Of a stretch of 64,000 nt of DNA, positions 7,341 through 14,918 are shown piece after piece. The number at the start of each line of letters is the position of its first letter. The stretch's first letter is position 1. This DNA is from Candidatus Amesbacteria bacterium (GTDB lineage Bacteria > Patescibacteriota > Microgenomatia > CAZETR01 > Amesbacteraceae). The translations under genes were made by a program, and so were the position numbers. Below the pieces are notes generated by a model, which did not search any database, was not told the origin of the DNA, and saw only the letters and a program-made list of their open reading frames with translations. The stretch lies in contig DAHXMV010000001.1 in assembly GCA_027371535.1 (NCBI GenBank), positions 32,879 to 96,878 of the forward strand, in the 5' to 3' direction.

Positions 7341-8277
7341 TGGCTTTGGCCAGATAACCCATCAGAGTACCGAAAATAACACTGATATCGGCAGTAATCT
7401 GAATCAGGGGAAGAAAGATAACGGCCAATATGTTTCTGACATAGCGGTAATTTTTGATGACGGCCCACAGCAGATAGAGCAGGACCAGCAAAGCCAGCGG
7501 GTAATAAAGCACATGAATCCGCTGGGCAAGAAAGAAGAAATATGCAAACGCCAGGTAGCGCAAAATCAGGAATTTGACTTTGGGGCGCAGGATGCCGGCC
7601 TGGATATCCCCGATGGCAAAACGCATAAACATCCAGGCCGACTGCTTTAGATTTTTCCGGGGCATCCAGCCGACTAAAGCCCGAGGGGCAAAGACAAATT
7701 TCACTCCCATGCGCGCCATCCAGACGGCAAAGGCGTAATCCTCGTTGTGATTTAATTTGGGATCGAAGCCGCCGGTCTTGTTCCAGAAGCTTTTGCGCAT
7801 GGCCATGGACCGGGTGGAGGGGAGAAAATACCCGGGATCCACCCTATCGGGCATCACCAGGACATAGGGAATCAGGCATTTTTGGAAAATATTTTCCGGT
7901 AAACCCCGGTAATACCCGCTGACCACCTGCGTCTGGGAGTCGTTAAACGGGGCCACAATTTCAGCCAGCCAGGTTTTTTCGGGAATACAGCCGGCGTCGG
8001 TAAAGACCAGAAGCGGAAAACGGGATTTTGAGACGGCAAAATTCCGGCCGACGGAACGGTTACCGGGAACCTGGAAAGGCCTCAAAACAGGCCAGTCTTT
8101 GGCCAGTTGCCCAAGTTTCTCAAAGGTGCCGTCTTTTGATCCCCCGTCGGTAATAATGACTTCGGTAGGCGGGAGAGTCTGGGCTTTCAGAGCCCTGATC
8201 AGGTCACTAATGGTGTCTGCTTCATTAAAAACAGTGATAAGGAGGGAGGTTTTAAAAAATGTCTTATGATTGGCCAT
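7327..8277 (-). CDS. glycosyltransferase family 2 with C-terminal TM segments
   Basis: SLLITVFNEADTISDLI, then ITDGGSKDGT and a DAG motif. Hydrophobic C-terminal tail. Confidence 0.85.
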   Translation of the reverse strand: MANHKTFFKTSLLITVFNEADTISDLIRALKAQTLPPTEVIITDGGSKDGTFEKLGQLAKDWPVLRPFQVPGNRSVGRNFAVSKSRFPLLVFTDAGCIPEKTWLAEIVAPFNDSQTQVVSGYYRGLPENIFQKCLIPYVLVMPDRVDPGYFLPSTRSMAMRKSFWNKTGGFDPKLNHNEDYAFAVWMARMGVKFVFAPRALVGWMPRKNLKQSAWMFMRFAIGDIQAGILRPKVKFLILRYLAFAYFFFLAQRIHVLYYPLALLVLLYLLWAVIKNYRYVRNILAVIFLPLIQITADISVIFGTLMGYLAKANGLF

Positions 8278-8384
8278 GATTTAACAATTATAACCTGGAT
8301 TTTGAGAGATCTAAATTATTTTACATCTTGGATTTTAATCTGACATAATTTTCTCTTATAATATGGCAGTTAAACTTAATAATT

Positions 8385-8846
8385 ATGATAAAAGCTATCG
8401 ATGATATTGTTTATAGAATAATAAATACATTTCTCGGACGATATATTATCCGTATAAATCTTTTTCGATACAGAATTTATGGTGATGAAAGCCGATTACA
8501 TTTATCTCAAGAAGCAAATGTTTTGAATGCTTTATTTAATGTAGTCTCCGGGAATATTAATATCGAAAAGGGAGTATTTTTTGGACATAATGTTTGTTTA
8601 TTAACTGGAACTCACAATTACCTAAGTTCGGGAGCCTCAAGAAGAAAAGATGTTCCATCTACTGGACGGGATATCACCGTCAAACAAGGTGCCTGGTTAG
8701 CATCAAATGTGACTGTGTTAGGACCTTGTATAATTGGTGAAAATGCCGTGGTAGCAGCCAATTCTCTGGTTATCCATAATGTACAAGCAAATACATTAGT
8801 AGCTGGAACACCTGCAAGAATAATTAAATATTTAAAAAATAGATAA
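8385..8846 (+). CDS. hexapeptide-repeat (left-handed beta-helix) O-acetyltransferase
   Basis: Hexapeptide repeats (VTVLGPCIIGENAVVAANSLVIHNV, AGTPARII) resembling maltose/galactoside or WbbJ-type sugar O-acetyltransferases. Confidence 0.8.
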   Translation: MIKAIDDIVYRIINTFLGRYIIRINLFRYRIYGDESRLHLSQEANVLNALFNVVSGNINIEKGVFFGHNVCLLTGTHNYLSSGASRRKDVPSTGRDITVKQGAWLASNVTVLGPCIIGENAVVAANSLVIHNVQANTLVAGTPARIIKYLKNR

Positions 8847-8847
8847 A

Positions 8848-9969
8848 TTAGTTAACCGTATCATCATTCATAGTTTTTTCATATATATGGTCTGTTAGTT
8901 CTATAGTATGATTCCAAGTATATTTTTCGGCTAAAACTCTCCCCTTGCCTACTCGAGAAGCATGCGACTCCGACACTGCAGTTATTATACTTTGAATTAA
9001 ACTTTCTGGTTGTTTAATATTAAAATATAAGGGTACATCATCGGCTACTTCGTGAAATACAGGTAGATTGCTTGCCACAATTGGTATTTTTTGAGACATA
9101 GCTTCGAGCACCGGAATTCCGAAACCTTCAGCTGATGATGGATATATAACAGCTTTTGCACCACATAAAAGATTAAATAATTGCGATTTTGTTAAACAAC
9201 CAGCAAAATTTATTCTATTATCTATGCCTAATGACCGACTTAGATAGGTTAGTTCGTCAATTTGATGACGATTATCTCCAGTAAAGATTATTTTTAAGTT
9301 TTTAAATATTATTGGATATTTTAATGATGCTTCAGCGAAACATCTGATTAGCATTGAATTGTTTTTGCGATCACCTAGTCCTCCATGACATAATAAATAA
9401 TTACTGAATACATTTGGTTTTGGGGTCCTTAGGTAGAGATTATCGATACCCATTGGTATTACAACTATTTTATTTTTAATTTGATGAAACTTTGAAATAA
9501 CTTCTTTTGAAGTATATTTAGAATTACAAATGATAACTTTTGCCTTATTAATTGAAGAATTTATTTCCCATCTATATAACATTTTGGATATAAATGGAAA
9601 TTTTGAATTTTGAAAGTAATTATGAACGGATAATGGTATCAGATCGTGAACTGTTAATATTGTTTTAAAAGGTGTTATAAATGGAATACCGTAATTCGCT
9701 GTAGCGTGATATAAATCAGGCTTGATTTTTTTCAACAATTCTTCAAGTTGAATCTGTTCCCAATAAAGACGATGGATTTTTAGCGGAATGGTAATATTTT
9801 CGACATTTTTTAAATATAATGGAAGAACAGAAATTACAAAAATACTGTATTTATCTTTATCCAAATAATTTATAATGGCATGAAGGTAATTAGCTATACC
9901 ACCATATGTATTCTCTAGATATCTGCCATCTAAAACCAATTTAATACGATTGAATTTTCTTAAAATCAT
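8848..9969 (-). CDS. glycosyltransferase family 4 (GT-B)
   Basis: KLVLDGRYL N-terminus and [11 protein letters not shown] nucleotide-sugar binding motif. Confidence 0.85.
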   Translation of the reverse strand: MILRKFNRIKLVLDGRYLENTYGGIANYLHAIINYLDKDKYSIFVISVLPLYLKNVENITIPLKIHRLYWEQIQLEELLKKIKPDLYHATANYGIPFITPFKTILTVHDLIPLSVHNYFQNSKFPFISKMLYRWEINSSINKAKVIICNSKYTSKEVISKFHQIKNKIVVIPMGIDNLYLRTPKPNVFSNYLLCHGGLGDRKNNSMLIRCFAEASLKYPIIFKNLKIIFTGDNRHQIDELTYLSRSLGIDNRINFAGCLTKSQLFNLLCGAKAVIYPSSAEGFGIPVLEAMSQKIPIVASNLPVFHEVADDVPLYFNIKQPESLIQSIITAVSESHASRVGKGRVLAEKYTWNHTIELTDHIYEKTMNDDTVN

Positions 9970-10747
9970 TTGTCTTTAAAGATTCGATAATTAGATTGTT
10001 AGTGTGTCCATAATTTAGTATTTTAGATAAAAATGATTTTAATGAATAGTAATTATGGTATGCATATAAATATTTCTTCTTATTTGTTTTAAAACCTGAA
10101 ATTAATAATTCTGTCCTAAGAATTTCCAAGGTATATTTTCTGACATGATTAATTGGATTTATCCCAATTTTCAGATAATTTTCCAAATTTTCGTTTAAAG
10201 GTACAGAAGCAATAAAAATACCACCTTTTTTAGTTATTCTGTTAACCTCCCTCAAGGTTCGAAATATACCACTCGGACTAATGTGCTCTAAAACTTCTGA
10301 TGCAATTACACAATCAAAATAGTTATTTGAATAATGGATATTATCAGATTTTAGACATGTAAATGTTGCATTATGAAACCTTTTATTAGCCTCACTAACG
10401 GATTCTTTAGCTATATCAATCCCATGCCATTCATAATTAGATTGATCTATTTGTAATAATTTTTCTAAATTACAAGATCCGAACCCAATATTTAAAATCT
10501 TTTTGATTTTTTTGTTACCTTTAATCCATTTGGCAATAATATTTAATTTATTCCAGGCCATAGGATATTTCTCTTTAGATGTATCGATTTCAAAGTTTTT
10601 CTTACTCCAATAAATATTTGTATTTCTGTTCTTAATTTCTGGTAATTTACTACTATACAATGCAATAAAAGATTTAAAGTCTCTACTCCTTGCATAACTA
10701 TCTCTTAGTACTTCGAGTTTCAAGGCTTTATTATTTAGATCTTGCAT
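9941..10747 (-). CDS. class I SAM-dependent methyltransferase
   Basis: Motif I (ILNIGFGSCN), then DCVIASEVLEHI (Methyltransf_11/23-like). Confidence 0.8.
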   Translation of the reverse strand: MQDLNNKALKLEVLRDSYARSRDFKSFIALYSSKLPEIKNRNTNIYWSKKNFEIDTSKEKYPMAWNKLNIIAKWIKGNKKIKKILNIGFGSCNLEKLLQIDQSNYEWHGIDIAKESVSEANKRFHNATFTCLKSDNIHYSNNYFDCVIASEVLEHISPSGIFRTLREVNRITKKGGIFIASVPLNENLENYLKIGINPINHVRKYTLEILRTELLISGFKTNKKKYLYAYHNYYSLKSFLSKILNYGHTNNLIIESLKTNDFKKIQSY

Positions 10748-10785
10748 ATTTAAAATATATTATTATACGATTAACTTAATATAAT

Positions 10786-13470
10786 ATGAAATATATATTA
10801 AAATATTGTTTCATTTTTATTATTTCTTTAATAAGTTTAAATTATATTACAAGGGTAACTTTAAAGGCTTACTTCAATATATGGAATCTCGAAAAGGAAT
10901 TATTACCTTATGCAATACACAATAATCAAGTTTATATATTCAACAAAGATATATATTCTTTTGGTGGAAGTTCGAACATAGTAAGTAATAAGCTTTTTAT
11001 TGGAAAATTAGGATTAGATGATTCAATTTTAAATTGGAGAATATCTGATTCTACACTCCCTTTCGAATTATTATGGCATAATTTAGCTTATCTAAATCAA
11101 AATGTATATATTTTGGGTGGAAGTATATTTCCGAATTACCAACCGTATTCTATAAATAATGTCAGTCTTGGCCATATAGACAATTCTGATATTTTACATT
11201 GGATTCAAGTAAACCCCTTACCTGCACCTTTATCATTAGGCTCATCACATACATTTAATGGTTATATTTATTATTCTGGAGGAGGTTTTTGGAATGGCTC
11301 AAATTACGACTTTCCTAAACTTAGTAATAAAGTATATAAAGCCTTAGTTAATATCGATGGGGTTTTGGGTGATTGGCAAGATGCTGGTTTCCTTCCTGAA
11401 CCTTTACTTGGTCATGAAATGACTTTCATTGGAGAGAAAATCTATATTTTTGGCGGTATAAGGAATATTTGCAATCTTCCAACAACGGAATGCTATCCCA
11501 CAACAGGAAATGTGTGGGTATCGTCATTAGATAGTAAGGGTAATATATCTAGCTGGGAGAAAGTTAGTGAACTAGGTGGTGGTCCATCATATCAATTTAT
11601 GCTTATCAATTCGGGTAATTATCTAATTAAACTAGGGGGAAGAGGTAATATACTCCATGGCTCAATTTTAACCGATAATATATTTTTCTCTGAGATCGCA
11701 AGTAATGGCTCAATAGGTCCTTGGAAAGAAAGTAATTATACTTTGCCTTTAAAGCTTTGTTGCTCCGGGGTAGCTCTGAGTGAGAATAGTATTTTCTTAT
11801 TTGGTGGGCATGATGGGAAGACATATTTTAATAATGTATGGAGAGCAAAAATAGCCGATATTGTCAGTGAACCTACTCCTACTCCTACTCCCAAGATTAC
11901 AAAACCTCTGGTGTTTATTCCGGGAATGGGCGGAAGCCTGAATATGAACGCCTTTTTATATAACCAGGATTTAGATCATTCTTACTGGAAATTAGTCAGT
12001 TATGTGTCGCCTTATGACGGATTAATCAAAACCTTTAAAAAAGCCGGTTATGAGATGAATAAAACCCTGTTTATTTATACTTATGACTGGAGAAAGGATA
12101 TTAAAGAACTCACTGTCGACTTTCAGCAGTACATCAGGGACCATGTTTTAACCGGAAAACCCGACGGTACCCAAATCGATGTGGTGGGACATTGTATGGG
12201 GGGATTAATTGCCAGATCAGCGGCAAAAGACGCCTATGCGACTTACATTGATAAAGTAATTACCGCCGGCAGCCCGGTGCTGGGCAGTGCCACTGTCTAC
12301 CCGGTTTGGGAGGGGGCGGAATTGTCAGATATGCCGGATATGCAACGAATTGCAATTCAGATATTATTGCGGATACATCAAAAAGATTACGATGACCAGG
12401 TAACTGAAATTCAGGATATGATACCATCCATTCAGAATTTTTTGCCTGTCTGGAGTTATCTGCAGACAAAAAACGGACAAACAAAGGATCTGTCGAAATT
12501 GACCTGGCAAAACAATTTTTTGGGCGAGCTAAACGGTAACTCAAACAACATGGTCGGCCGGATGAGTATTTTATACGGCAGCGGCTACAATACTCCGGAA
12601 ACGATTAAAGTGGCCGAACCGGAAAGGATCCAGAAGCTGTTAGGAAAATGGATTGACGGCCAACCGACCGGCAAAATATATTCCGACGGGGATGATACGG
12701 TAACCACAAGCAGTGCACATTTGGCGGGAGTGACTCAAATTTCTGAAATTACCAATACAAATCACGGTGAAATAGTATCAGCCATTCCCGGTCAAATGGA
12801 AATAATGAGATATCTGGGGGTTAAAGATGCTGTGGCTACAGAAAACAACAATACGGATGCTCAGAAGTCATTGGCGGTATTTGTAGGGTCGCCGGTGACC
12901 TTTACCGTGGAAAATGGTGAGAAGACTTGGAACCCCAAAGACGGATTGGTGGTAATTACCAATCCCGAAAATGGAAATTATAAGATTCACGTGACCAGCA
13001 TTCTACCGGGGGAATATACGCTATATTTCGGCAGGCTTTTTAAAGGAGATACAGCGTGGGAAGAGGAAACCGGAAATTTTACCGCAGGAGAACCGACAGA
13101 AAGAGAATATATTTATAATGTAAATTTCGACAATAAAAACCTGGGGGGCAATCCCCTCGAAGATGCCATTGAAAGAATGCAGATAATAACGGATACGCTT
13201 TCAAAAGCAGAAAATACCCAGGTTTACAGCCAGGCAGCCAAGGTTTATATGACGCATATCCAGCAGGATCTCAATAATTTAAAAAGCCTAAATACAAATA
13301 ACCCGGAAGCCGGGATAAATTCGATTTTAAAACAGATCAACTTCTCATTAACCAATCTTCATACCTGGAAAATAGTACCCGAAAAATTTGATTTCGGTTC
13401 GGCATTTATAACCCAACAGATGAGACTGGTAAAAGGTGATATGGATCAATATGCCGGTGATATATTGTAG
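10786..13470 (+). CDS. secreted multidomain protein: signal/TM, Kelch-type beta-propeller, TPTPTP linker, lipase-like alpha/beta hydrolase (GHCMGG) and a C-terminal beta-sandwich
   Basis: The N-terminus is hydrophobic. Six or more Kelch-like blades recur as YIFGG / YILGG / YYSGGG / YIFGG / IKLGG / FLFGG. After the linker comes PLVFIPGMGG ... DVVGHCMGGLIARSA ... ITAGSPVLG, which matches lipase class 2 / LCAT / PGAP1-like hydrolases but has Cys at the nucleophile position. Confidence 0.8.
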   Translation: MKYILKYCFIFIISLISLNYITRVTLKAYFNIWNLEKELLPYAIHNNQVYIFNKDIYSFGGSSNIVSNKLFIGKLGLDDSILNWRISDSTLPFELLWHNLAYLNQNVYILGGSIFPNYQPYSINNVSLGHIDNSDILHWIQVNPLPAPLSLGSSHTFNGYIYYSGGGFWNGSNYDFPKLSNKVYKALVNIDGVLGDWQDAGFLPEPLLGHEMTFIGEKIYIFGGIRNICNLPTTECYPTTGNVWVSSLDSKGNISSWEKVSELGGGPSYQFMLINSGNYLIKLGGRGNILHGSILTDNIFFSEIASNGSIGPWKESNYTLPLKLCCSGVALSENSIFLFGGHDGKTYFNNVWRAKIADIVSEPTPTPTPKITKPLVFIPGMGGSLNMNAFLYNQDLDHSYWKLVSYVSPYDGLIKTFKKAGYEMNKTLFIYTYDWRKDIKELTVDFQQYIRDHVLTGKPDGTQIDVVGHCMGGLIARSAAKDAYATYIDKVITAGSPVLGSATVYPVWEGAELSDMPDMQRIAIQILLRIHQKDYDDQVTEIQDMIPSIQNFLPVWSYLQTKNGQTKDLSKLTWQNNFLGELNGNSNNMVGRMSILYGSGYNTPETIKVAEPERIQKLLGKWIDGQPTGKIYSDGDDTVTTSSAHLAGVTQISEITNTNHGEIVSAIPGQMEIMRYLGVKDAVATENNNTDAQKSLAVFVGSPVTFTVENGEKTWNPKDGLVVITNPENGNYKIHVTSILPGEYTLYFGRLFKGDTAWEEETGNFTAGEPTEREYIYNVNFDNKNLGGNPLEDAIERMQIITDTLSKAENTQVYSQAAKVYMTHIQQDLNNLKSLNTNNPEAGINSILKQINFSLTNLHTWKIVPEKFDFGSAFITQQMRLVKGDMDQYAGDIL

Positions 13471-13475
13471 CGCTT

Positions 13476-14210
13476 TTACCTACTCACGATAATAGCAGAT
13501 TTGGACGATTCGTCGGTTATCGGGAGGTGGTCACCGGTGGGATAATCGCGGATGGCGAAGAAGAATTTTGAAGATGAATAGCGGAAATTTTCACCGTGGC
13601 GGGTACCGGCGTCATTCGTGATGAATTCATCAGTTTGCGGATCGTAACCGCGAATGACAATCATATGCCTTTGGGGCCCCGGAGGAGTATAAAAAGGATT
13701 TCCCAGCAGCTGGCCATTCATGGGAGTGACTACCAGGCTTCCGGCATCCAAATAATTGACAATCTGGCTGACTGCCGTTAACTTTGCCACGCGGATTTGA
13801 TTATATTTAAAATAACCTTTAAAAATCCTGTCGGCAGCATCCCCGGCAGAAGTGTCTACAGAAGTCCCGAATTCTTTGATTTCAAAATCGGAAATTTTCT
13901 GAATTTCATTCAGCATAATCCGGGGAGTAAGGATCTGATTTTTAGCCCAATAGACGGCGATGACAGCGGCGGCCTCCTCACAACCGTTCTGCTCCTGCGG
14001 ATCCTGCCAGTTACCAAAAGGCGCCTGAGCAGCAAAGGGGACATCCGAAATATAAATCAGTTTATGGGCGGGGAAAACTGTGGGTACAGGACGTATGATA
14101 GCAGGTGTCGGCAGAATAACCGAGACGATGGTTGACGGTAAACCGGACCTGAAGAAATAAACAATAATCAGGGTAAAAATTAATAGTATGTAGACCAGGA
14201 ACCATTTCAT
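13476..14210 (-). CDS. membrane-anchored papain-like cysteine peptidase, C39-like (Peptidase_C39_2) candidate
   Basis: N-terminal TM helix. Ordered Cys/His/Asp candidates: QNGCEEAAAV, HMIVIRGYD, NDAG. Start set at MKWFL (14208-14210) because the longer ORF-track N-terminus runs through tRNA-Val. Confidence 0.55.
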   Translation of the reverse strand: MKWFLVYILLIFTLIIVYFFRSGLPSTIVSVILPTPAIIRPVPTVFPAHKLIYISDVPFAAQAPFGNWQDPQEQNGCEEAAAVIAVYWAKNQILTPRIMLNEIQKISDFEIKEFGTSVDTSAGDAADRIFKGYFKYNQIRVAKLTAVSQIVNYLDAGSLVVTPMNGQLLGNPFYTPPGPQRHMIVIRGYDPQTDEFITNDAGTRHGENFRYSSSKFFFAIRDYPTGDHLPITDESSKSAIIVSR

Positions 14211-14218
14211 GTGGAGAG

Positions 14219-14290
14219 TGGGCACAGAGGGATTTGAACCCCCGGCATCTGCAATGTGAATGCAGCGCTCTACCGCTGAGCTATGTGCCC
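14219..14290 (-). tRNA. tRNA-Val (anticodon CAC)
   Basis: Manual fold gives acceptor GGGCACA/TGTGCCC, D arm GCTC-AGCGGTA-GAGC, anticodon stem CTGCA/TGCAG with loop TTCACAT (anticodon CAC), and T arm GGGGG-TTCAAAT-CCCTC. Confidence 0.9.
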
Positions 14291-14345
14291 CTAAAGCCCC
14301 CTTCAGATCTCGACAAATTTTAACATAGGCGCCATAATTAATAAC

Positions 14346-14918
14346 ATGTTTAAATTCCTGAACCAAAAAGCGGCGGTGGCCATTTTGGAAGCTATCCAGC
14401 CGGTAGTGATGGCATTTGCCATATTTATGATGATTTATTTGTTTGTGGCCCAGCCACACAAAGTTGACGGCAGTTCCATGTATCCCAATTTCCACGACAA
14501 GGAATTTATATTAACGGACAAAATAACTTACAGAAGATCAGATCCGCAAAGAGGCGATGTAATCATCTTTCACGCTCCGCCGCCGTTTGACAGCGATTTT
14601 ATTAAGAGAATCATCGGCCTTCCGGGCGAAACCGTGATGGTTAAAGACAATCATGTATATGTGAACAGTAAATTATTACCGGAGCCGTATTTACCCTCCG
14701 ATTTTGTAACCACCGAGAAATCATTTCTCAGAGAAGGAGTGCCTTATACAATACCACTAGGCTATTACATAGTTATGGGAGATAACCGCAGCTACAGTTC
14801 AGATTCGCGCGAATGGGGACCTATAGCCAGAAGTGCAATTGTAGGCAAAGCGTGGCTTAGGTACTGGCCTATAAACGAAATCGGTTTAATCAAACACCAA
14901 AGTTACAAAAATTTCTAA
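14346..14918 (+). CDS. lepB: signal peptidase I
   Basis: S26 family boxes: GSSMYPN (catalytic Ser), KRIIGLPGE, and GDNRSYSSDSREWGP. Confidence 0.9.
   Translation: MFKFLNQKAAVAILEAIQPVVMAFAIFMMIYLFVAQPHKVDGSSMYPNFHDKEFILTDKITYRRSDPQRGDVIIFHAPPPFDSDFIKRIIGLPGETVMVKDNHVYVNSKLLPEPYLPSDFVTTEKSFLREGVPYTIPLGYYIVMGDNRSYSSDSREWGPIARSAIVGKAWLRYWPINEIGLIKHQSYKNF

Follow-up and report, generated by a model that had tools for sequence, protein, structure and literature searches.

The window analysed here is a 64,000-nucleotide stretch of the Candidatus Amesbacteria contig DAHXMV010000001.1 (positions 32,879-96,878), and all coordinates are given in window numbering. One of its genes encodes a multi-domain, putatively exported protein of 894 residues, in which a Kelch propeller is fused to an alpha/beta-hydrolase of the LCAT/LPLA2 type. 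At the nucleophile elbow, where nearly all relatives of this hydrolase have the catalytic serine, it has a cysteine, Cys470 (GHCMGG, residues 468-473). The Cys at the elbow is genuine and inherited, the fold is LCAT/LPLA2-like, and the fusion architecture and the genomic position are ancestral. Judged by conserved motifs and structural models, the protein is best read as an enzyme that probably still functions, using a predicted Cys-His-Asp triad.

Ser-to-Cys swaps in serine hydrolases are a textbook case of changes that usually wreck activity. Here the swap has been kept in two diverged lineages, which, with Ser positional orthologs as built-in controls, makes it a natural test case for enzymologists. 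Natural Ser/Cys switches are already known from other alpha/beta hydrolases; what is new is a lineage-fixed switch in an LCAT/LPLA2-like hydrolase that appears to be exported. The Kelch-hydrolase fusion is ordinary for the family and only the Cys is unusual, with a narrow phylogenetic footprint of two Cys sequences found. The protein is a candidate for the natural "cysteine lipase" asked about by Cen et al. (PMC6642262).

The cysteine is not a sequencing error

The original prediction, made from the DNA alone, listed a sequencing error among its explanations of the elbow codon. The open reading frame (ORF), the TGT codon and the motifs that it quoted are all present where it placed them; besides GHCMGG, we located PLVFIPGMGG, AGSPVLG (residue 494), DGDDTV (residue 634) and NHGEIV (residue 659). 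The identical 894-residue protein is encoded on three contigs from different assemblies, namely a MEGAHIT-type ENA assembly (ERZ27233560), a Logan assembly (SRR13170412) and an NCBI metagenome-assembled genome (contig of 320 kb), and the DNA of the two retrieved loci equals the window DNA across the whole ORF.

The best match of the query, P0002 (46% identity in the hydrolase domain), also has Cys at the elbow, in the same GHCMGG motif. Its Cys codon is TGC, synonymous with the TGT of the window, and the flanking housekeeping DNA is ~70.6% identical. P0002 is found on a Joint Genome Institute (JGI) contig, L003, from a different sample, St. Maurice River reservoir sediment (bioRxiv 10.1101/2022.03.14.484253). 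There its gene is positioned as in the window, upstream of the genes for a C39-like peptidase, S26 signal peptidase, ParB, L27, L21, FtsW and isoleucyl-tRNA synthetase (IleRS). TGT is one substitution from the Ser codons AGT or TCT, and a misread or misassembled Ser codon could in principle have produced it. However, because three assemblies agree and a syntenic ortholog from another sample has its Cys as TGC, such an error is excluded and this explanation can be regarded as effectively refuted. P0002 is seemingly without a Kelch half because its contig stops in the linker; its reading frame continues without interruption up to the edge of the contig, with VW-MATIDDI… where the query has VW-RAKIADI (end of blade 6).

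Origin of the cysteine within a serine family

An exhaustive HMMER search with the hydrolase domain against 1.84 billion cluster representatives returned 2,930 homologs at E <= 1e-3, and the elbow and conservation counts given in this paper refer to the best 150 of these. The elbow residue is Ser in 148 of them and Cys in two, the query and P0002. The exhaustive search was needed: a word-indexed search with the hydrolase domain alone gave no matches, missing even the query itself, and a search with the alignment of query and P0002 gave 16 proteins, without P0002 among them.

A neighbour-joining tree of the hydrolase domain groups the two Cys proteins as sisters inside a Ser-bearing, Kelch-carrying clade. 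The genome of P0002 is also the window's closest sampled relative over six linked markers, with identities of 76% for FtsW, 91% for ParB and 79% for S26, compared with at most 61%, 88% and 74% for the other genomes. Positional orthologs with Ser, encoded by AGT or AGC, are P0011 (L019/L020), P0003 (L018) and copies in L023 and L021. P0011 lies on a 166,067-bp contig with fully conserved synteny, the IleRS of which is named Ca. Amesbacteria bacterium RIFOXYB1_FULL_44_23. Because these orthologs carry AGT or AGC, the ancestral Ser codon was likely one of the two. Most simply, AGT changed to TGT by one transversion before the two Cys lineages parted, and a silent TGT/TGC change came later. The original prediction had also proposed a single transversion, which holds, starting from TCT, which does not.

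A scan of the genome collection with the Cys peptide pattern ID[VL]VGHCM revealed no further Cys relatives, only distant Ser-bearing ones, and a first metagenome scan for more Cys members returned nothing. A second metagenome scan, with a degenerate DNA pattern for [IV]GHCMGGL[IV], gave 11 loci, all of them unrelated alpha/beta hydrolases or chance ORFs; this negative is weak and the collection incomplete, because the known P0002 contig was not recovered. GHCMGG does occur at an elbow-like position in unrelated metagenome hydrolases (L010 3811-4743, L012, L014 and L017; e.g. VVGHCMGGFIAQEMA and LMGHCMGGFVARAA), and scattered Cys elbows are seen in metagenomes among other families of hydrolases.

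The rest of the active site

The original prediction had left open where the Asp and His partners of the nucleophile might lie. Candidates for both were found, Asp636 in a G-D-x-T-V motif and His660, each almost invariant among the relatives (Table 1). His660 was assigned by topology and conservation. The profile alignment in this region was unreliable and was left aside: HMMER placed the His motif of the family on a neighbouring His of LPLA2 (chain 348) and ended just before the catalytic one. In the AlphaFold2 (AF2) model, Cys470 is placed between strand 464-469 and helix 471-479, which is the canonical elbow of strand, residue and helix. All three predicted triad residues lie at canonical post-strand positions in confident models, which have predicted local distance difference test (pLDDT) scores of 86-88.

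Forty columns are conserved at >=85% in the Ser members. Each Cys protein keeps 38 of these, the family median being two deviations, and the two Gly of the elbow are present in both Cys lineages. The hydrolase domains of the Cys pair are 46% identical at an FtsW identity of 76%, while Ser-Ser and Ser-Cys pairs are 27-39% identical at FtsW identities of 50-60%. Divergence of the hydrolase keeps pace with that of the housekeeping proteins, as in Ser-Ser pairs, and no faster decay is apparent. Near the catalytic motifs, the substitutions common to both Cys proteins are H498 to V or N, L640 to T, D551N, L552F and F556W, where H498 is the His of G-S-P-H-x-G and L640 the Leu after G-D-x-T-V. From sequence comparison, these are candidate accompanying changes.

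Catalysis, loss of activity or another substrate

The enzyme would be an exported modular protein, made up of a signal or anchor helix, a Kelch propeller, a Thr/Pro linker, an LCAT/LPLA2-type hydrolase, a beta-sandwich and a helical bundle. Its catalytic Ser codon would have changed from AGT to TGT once, before this organism and one related lineage diverged, and the change would have been kept since. The enzyme most likely still works via the predicted Cys470-His660-Asp636 triad, which would attack an acyl ester, probably of a lipid or a lipid-like molecule. The intermediate would then be an acyl-thioester instead of an acyl-oxyester, and could be resolved either by water, as in an esterase or lipase, or by an acceptor, resulting in acyl transfer. 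LPLA2, LCAT, Tle4, lipases and Bst1/PGAP1 act on lipid esters via an acyl-enzyme intermediate. Since the closest enzymes all do so, the default inference for the query is a lipid-like ester attacked by way of an acyl-thioester. A genuine Cys nucleophile was one of the options in the original prediction, and it is the one favoured here, on a site that is otherwise intact and conserved; activity itself is predicted from sequence.

A number of points weigh against a working cysteine enzyme, and several of them would suit a protein in which the Ser-to-Cys change crippled catalysis and the domain was kept in a surface protein only to bind lipids or ligands or for structural reasons. Engineered Ser-to-Cys swaps generally break serine-hydrolase activity or cut it sharply, according to PMC6642262, such that reduced or altered function of the query is possible. 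The query, but not P0002, has an extra deviation, W385L (11938-11940), at a 91%-conserved Trp of the P-G-x-G-x-S-W loop near the predicted oxyanion region, which could be affected by it. Both Cys proteins have lost the His of GSPHxG, which is 81% conserved. Only two Cys-bearing sequences were found, of which P0002 is 5'-truncated at its contig end, and that two sequences with 46% identity share one residue is in itself weak evidence. The case for a working site rests on the conservation of the whole motif set: Asp636, His660, both elbow Gly and 38 of the 40 conserved positions are retained in both lineages with no faster divergence than among the Ser orthologs, which makes a decayed pseudoenzyme unlikely. 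Dead hydrolases typically lose several triad residues, and the Cys has persisted through a synonymous codon change although reversion to Ser needs one mutation. The inactivated module that the original prediction also considered is thus disfavoured, though it is the chief rival to a functional triad.

Another possibility is that the Cys enzyme is active on surface glycans and not on lipids, as a de-O-acylase or O-acyl transferase on the acylated polysaccharide of its own cell or of a host; the Kelch propeller would then serve to bind carbohydrate. The gene stands at the end of a cluster for glycan synthesis (Ig-like/glucodextranase-B protein, Wzy, GT2, flippase, GT2, hexapeptide acyltransferase, GT4 and methyltransferase), and its divergent pairing with the methyltransferase recurs in L018, L019/L020 and L023 (at least four genomes). 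In other members of the family (P0014, P0028, P0040, P0057, P0025, P0060, P0151, P0152 and P0159), the same hydrolase core carries differing N-terminal modules: Kelch or, in its place, a lectin-like DUF1080/3-keto-disaccharide-hydrolase domain, a BNR/Sortilin propeller or a GH32/43/130-like propeller. The folds that replace Kelch are typically carbohydrate-facing. As Kelch is replaced by other modules across the family, the N-terminal module looks like a shuffled, interchangeable targeting domain, and its target could be a glycan-decorated surface. The cluster and the lectin- and propeller-type modules fit an acyl ester linked to a glycan no less than a membrane lipid, which also counts against a lipid substrate. 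A Cys-His O-acetyltransferase, TviD, operates in Vi-antigen synthesis (PMC8760489), with an SGNH fold unlike that of the query. However, the closest folds and profiles are all those of lipid-ester enzymes (LPLA2, LCAT, Tle4, family I lipases, PlaB and PGAP1), and the adjacency to the cluster is not strict. Close relatives differ in the presence and position of the Kelch-hydrolase gene: it is absent from L024 (16302-17927), where the C39 peptidase abuts the methyltransferase directly; an ABC transporter flanks it in place of C39 in L023 (16165-21139); and it is displaced by ~5 kb in L021 (17001-18942). The locus is therefore evolutionarily fluid. We consider a glycan substrate improbable and prefer a Cys-His-Asp triad that acts on a lipid-like ester.

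Domain architecture

The order of domains in the original prediction, a six-bladed Kelch propeller, a TPTPTP linker, the hydrolase and a beta-sandwich, agrees with both the Pfam matches and the AF2 models (Table 1). The models additionally reveal a C-terminal four-helix bundle, absent from that description, for which no Pfam match was found; an NCBIfam scan of the protein gave no match either.

Table 1. Features of the Kelch-hydrolase gene and its immediate neighbours, in window numbering
Feature	Position	Strand	Support
Whole gene, 894 residues: Kelch propeller, LCAT-like hydrolase, beta-sandwich and helical bundle	10786..13470	+	Intact ORF; Pfam domains; identical protein on 3 contigs
Signal peptide or membrane anchor, residues 1-29, MKYILKYCFIFIISLISLNYITRVTLKAY	10786..10872	+	Lys-rich start, then hydrophobic stretch; modelled as a lone helix, residues 2-29
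Six-bladed Kelch beta-propeller, residues 33-355	10882..11850	+	Kelch_1 and related Pfam matches; PDB Kelch proteins including LZTR1; AF2 model
Thr/Pro-rich flexible linker (…SEPTPTPTPKIT…)	11863..11901	+	pLDDT <50 at residues 364-368; consensus PTPTPTP in orthologs
LCAT/LPLA2/PGAP1-type alpha/beta-hydrolase with helical cap, residues 373-680	11902..12825	+	Pfam; family profile against PDB; Foldseek
Cys470 codon TGT, nucleophile elbow G-H-C-M-G-G	12193..12195	+	Sequence; column is Ser in 148/150 relatives; aligns with LPLA2 Ser165
Asp636, predicted triad acid (G-D-x-T-V motif)	12691..12693	+	Asp in 149/150 relatives; end of strand 626-635; motif aligns with LPLA2 GDGDGTV
His660, predicted triad base	12763..12765	+	His in 146/150 relatives; loop after last core strand 651-655, before helix 662-665
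Beta-sandwich, residues ~694-779	12865..13122	+	Seven strands in AF2 models; weak PPC match, E = 0.0014
C-terminal four-helix bundle, residues 790-893	13153..13464	+	AF2 helices 790-807, 813-834, 840-860 and 870-893; partly conserved in close relatives
S-adenosylmethionine (SAM) methyltransferase, divergent conserved neighbour, ends glycan-synthesis cluster	9941..10747	-	Pfam Methyltransf_11/25
Peptidase_C39_2-like, 244 residues, convergent conserved neighbour	13476..14210	-	Pfam 2.7e-10; same position in L003, L019 and L020

Two AF2 models were built with homolog alignments, one of residues 364-894 (pLDDT 86, predicted template modelling score (pTM) 0.86) and one of the full-length protein (pLDDT 88, pTM 0.61). 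The lower pTM of the full-length model, taken with the disordered linker (TPTPTP motif at residue 364), suggests that the propeller is flexibly tethered to the hydrolase. The modelled propeller has 23 strands and an N-terminal closing strand, giving six four-stranded blades with pLDDT mostly >85. Pfam matches over residues ~40-360 include Kelch_1 at 40.9 bits (cut-off 20.1) and Kelch_6 at 29.7 bits (cut-off 25.3). The propeller is most likely a ligand- or target-binding module. The beta-sandwich, with its match to the pre-peptidase C-terminal (PPC) domain, has homologues in 93 of the 150 family representatives.

At the N-terminus, the query has K2 and K6 followed by a hydrophobic stretch, in which the sole candidate cleavage site is ...TLKA/Y. 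Some orthologs have classic signal peptides with clear A-x-A sites, ending in ASA or ILA (…SFPLSASA/Q and …GQILA/V). The N-terminal helix of the query may be a signal peptide, although it could also be an uncleaved anchor, and the protein is predicted to be exported.

The original prediction had presented the fusion of propeller and hydrolase as a special feature. The Kelch half is homologous in 25 of the 150 representatives, and the Ser positional ortholog has the same architecture at the same locus. The idea that the fusion is novel, or the recent product of a low-GC insertion, was rejected for the same reason: it is ancestral and widespread.

A Cys-Cys pair at residues 325-326 (11758-11763) lies in blade 6 of the propeller (…LPLKLCCSGVAL…), and C325 is nearly invariant among the Kelch-bearing family members. 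The pair could be structural or form part of a ligand site in the propeller.

Genomic neighbourhood

On the side away from the glycan-synthesis cluster, the gene is followed by those for the C39-like peptidase, signal peptidase, ParB, ribosomal proteins and FtsW. The peptidase had been called as a 339-residue ORF (13476-14495, minus strand), which extends too far: its 5' part takes in a tRNA-Val (CAC; 14218-14290, minus strand), and public assemblies call the gene at 13476-14210.

A low-GC segment spans 8250-11300, with 20-37% GC compared with ~45-50% in its flanks. It contains the genes for the hexapeptide acyltransferase (8385-8846), the GT4 (8848-9969) and the methyltransferase (9941-10747), together with the first half of the Kelch domain. 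The GC content at third codon positions (GC3) is 0.23 in the Kelch half and 0.47 in the hydrolase. No similarity could be detected between the GT4 of the window and its positional counterpart, also a GT4, in the ortholog locus of Amesbacteria, and the hexapeptide gene is unique to the window. Relative to the ortholog, residues 1-180 of the Kelch half (28% identity) are more diverged than residues 181-363 (40%). The segment looks like a swapped glycan-modification cassette with its junction inside the Kelch-hydrolase gene.

The start codons of the methyltransferase and Kelch-hydrolase genes are separated by 38 very AT-rich bases (10748-10785), and by a single base in L019. A promoter and terminator scan did no better than shuffled sequences (15 versus 12.6 +/- 4.1), and no obvious Shine-Dalgarno sequence precedes the ATG of the Kelch-hydrolase gene.

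The organism and lipid acquisition

The original prediction had guessed at a bacterium of the candidate phyla radiation (CPR). The best matches of the window's IleRS (62-66%) bear the names Ca. Amesbacteria, Microgenomates group or Patescibacteria, and hydrolase relatives are named Ca. Shapirobacteria; the assignment to the ultrasmall bacteria of the CPR (Microgenomates group) is sound.

Patescibacteria are described in reviews as being without lipid synthesis, with mechanisms of lipid uptake and breakdown yet to be identified, and surface phospholipases have been proposed to attack their hosts (PMC11665869; PMC8080830). Large lipase-like proteins that are conserved in Microgenomates and appear to be exported are few, and the family described here is one of them. 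Given the missing mechanisms (PMC11665869), the whole family, more than the Cys itself, is a reasonable target for work on lipid uptake and breakdown. The hypothesis of lipid scavenging from hosts, put forward in the original prediction, would match this published speculation (PMC11665869, PMC8080830). A more elaborate scenario, which we rate as a long shot, is that the protein is a cysteine-LCAT surface transacylase, in which the acyl-thioester favours transfer over hydrolysis. A lipid-auxotrophic CPR bacterium in anoxic sediment would dock by means of the Kelch propeller, strip acyl chains or lysolipids from the host envelope and build its own membrane from them. If true, this would be the first natural cysteine lipase/acyltransferase of the family and a concrete mechanism of lipid acquisition for Patescibacteria.

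Comparison with known systems

The original prediction had related the hydrolase to LCAT, PGAP1 and lipase class 2, and all three Pfam families score above their cut-offs. LCAT is the best match (59.7 bits, cut-off 21, E = 3.9e-16, residues 408-551); PGAP1 (34.0 bits, cut-off 24.3, E = 3.3e-8, residues 374-501) overlaps it, such that the two represent the same domain and related families; and Lipase_2 is just admitted at 21.1 bits (cut-off 20.3). The family profile, compared with the PDB, gave Tle4 as the top match (2.8e-11), then LPLA2 (4.1e-9), followed by family I lipases (Burkholderia), LCAT (~1e-7), B. subtilis LipA and Bst1/PGAP1. In Foldseek, the top 11 matches of the model (pLDDT 86) are all LPLA2 or LCAT (E = 5.6e-12 to 1.8e-10, target TM-score 0.45-0.53). 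The best per protein are LPLA2 at 5.6e-12 and LCAT at 2.5e-11, and these are followed by BlEst2, Pseudomonas and Burkholderia lipases, Tle4 and PlaB.

Like LCAT and LPLA2 (group XV PLA2, PF02450), which are its best Pfam and structural matches, the query has an alpha/beta core with an inserted cap, and its elbow column aligns with LPLA2 Ser165, the residue mutated in PDB 4x92 ("S165A"). Unlike them, it has Cys as its nucleophile in place of Ser, sequence identity is only ~16%, and it belongs to a bacterium (CPR), is presumably exported and carries a Kelch propeller, a beta-sandwich and a helical bundle as fusion partners. There is no evidence that the sterol or lysosomal biology of LCAT and LPLA2 applies to the query.

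Secreted bacterial lipases and Tle4 are exported enzymes that attack membranes or lipids. Structural matches to this group (Tle4, PDB 4R1D; family I.1/I.2 of Pseudomonas and Burkholderia; B. subtilis LipA; BlEst2; Legionella PlaB) range from 1e-10 to 1e-5, and the profile of the query family matches the lipases at 1e-8 to 1e-6, over the elbow region and the GxPHxG motif. All of these lipases use Ser, their accessory domains differ from those of the query, and neither Cys protein retains the His of the common G-[ST]-P-H-x-G motif. PDB 4R1D is Tle4, a lipase effector of the P. aeruginosa type VI secretion system (T6SS; PMC4832377); unlike for Tle4 effectors, no T6SS genes or adjacent immunity gene were found among the inspected neighbours at the query locus. 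The GPI inositol-deacylase PGAP1/Bst1 (PF07819) resembles the query in its Pfam score and in a profile match to Bst1 (8k9q/8k9r) around the elbow. It differs in being a Ser enzyme and a eukaryotic ER membrane protein, and the similarity is limited to the N-terminal half of the fold.

Cys nucleophiles are established in alpha/beta hydrolases, dienelactone hydrolase (DLH) being the classic case. The query resembles DLH and the Cys thioesterases and N-acyltransferases in having Cys at the alpha/beta elbow and its predicted His and Asp in the standard places. It is not a sequence member of the DLH family (PF01738, 11.8 bits against a cut-off of 21, E = 0.18), so the likeness is one of triad chemistry only. 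Ser/Cys switching has been documented within thioesterases, N-acyltransferases and DLHs (PMC9825947). Among engineered enzymes, the cysteine-lipase CALB S105C of Cen et al. kept its activity, which was improved by extra mutations next to the nucleophile, and that paper explicitly leaves open whether cysteine-lipases exist in nature (PMC6642262). Our literature search turned up neither a natural Cys nucleophile reported for the LCAT/lipase group nor a paper on the Microgenomates Kelch-hydrolase family.

A further comparison is provided by the Ser positional orthologs (P0011, P0003 and P0009). These share the four-part architecture, with 35-39% identity in the hydrolase domain, and the locus between the glycan cluster with its methyltransferase and the C39-S26-ParB-L27-L21-FtsW-IleRS block. 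Unlike the query, they have GHSMGG (AGT) at the elbow.

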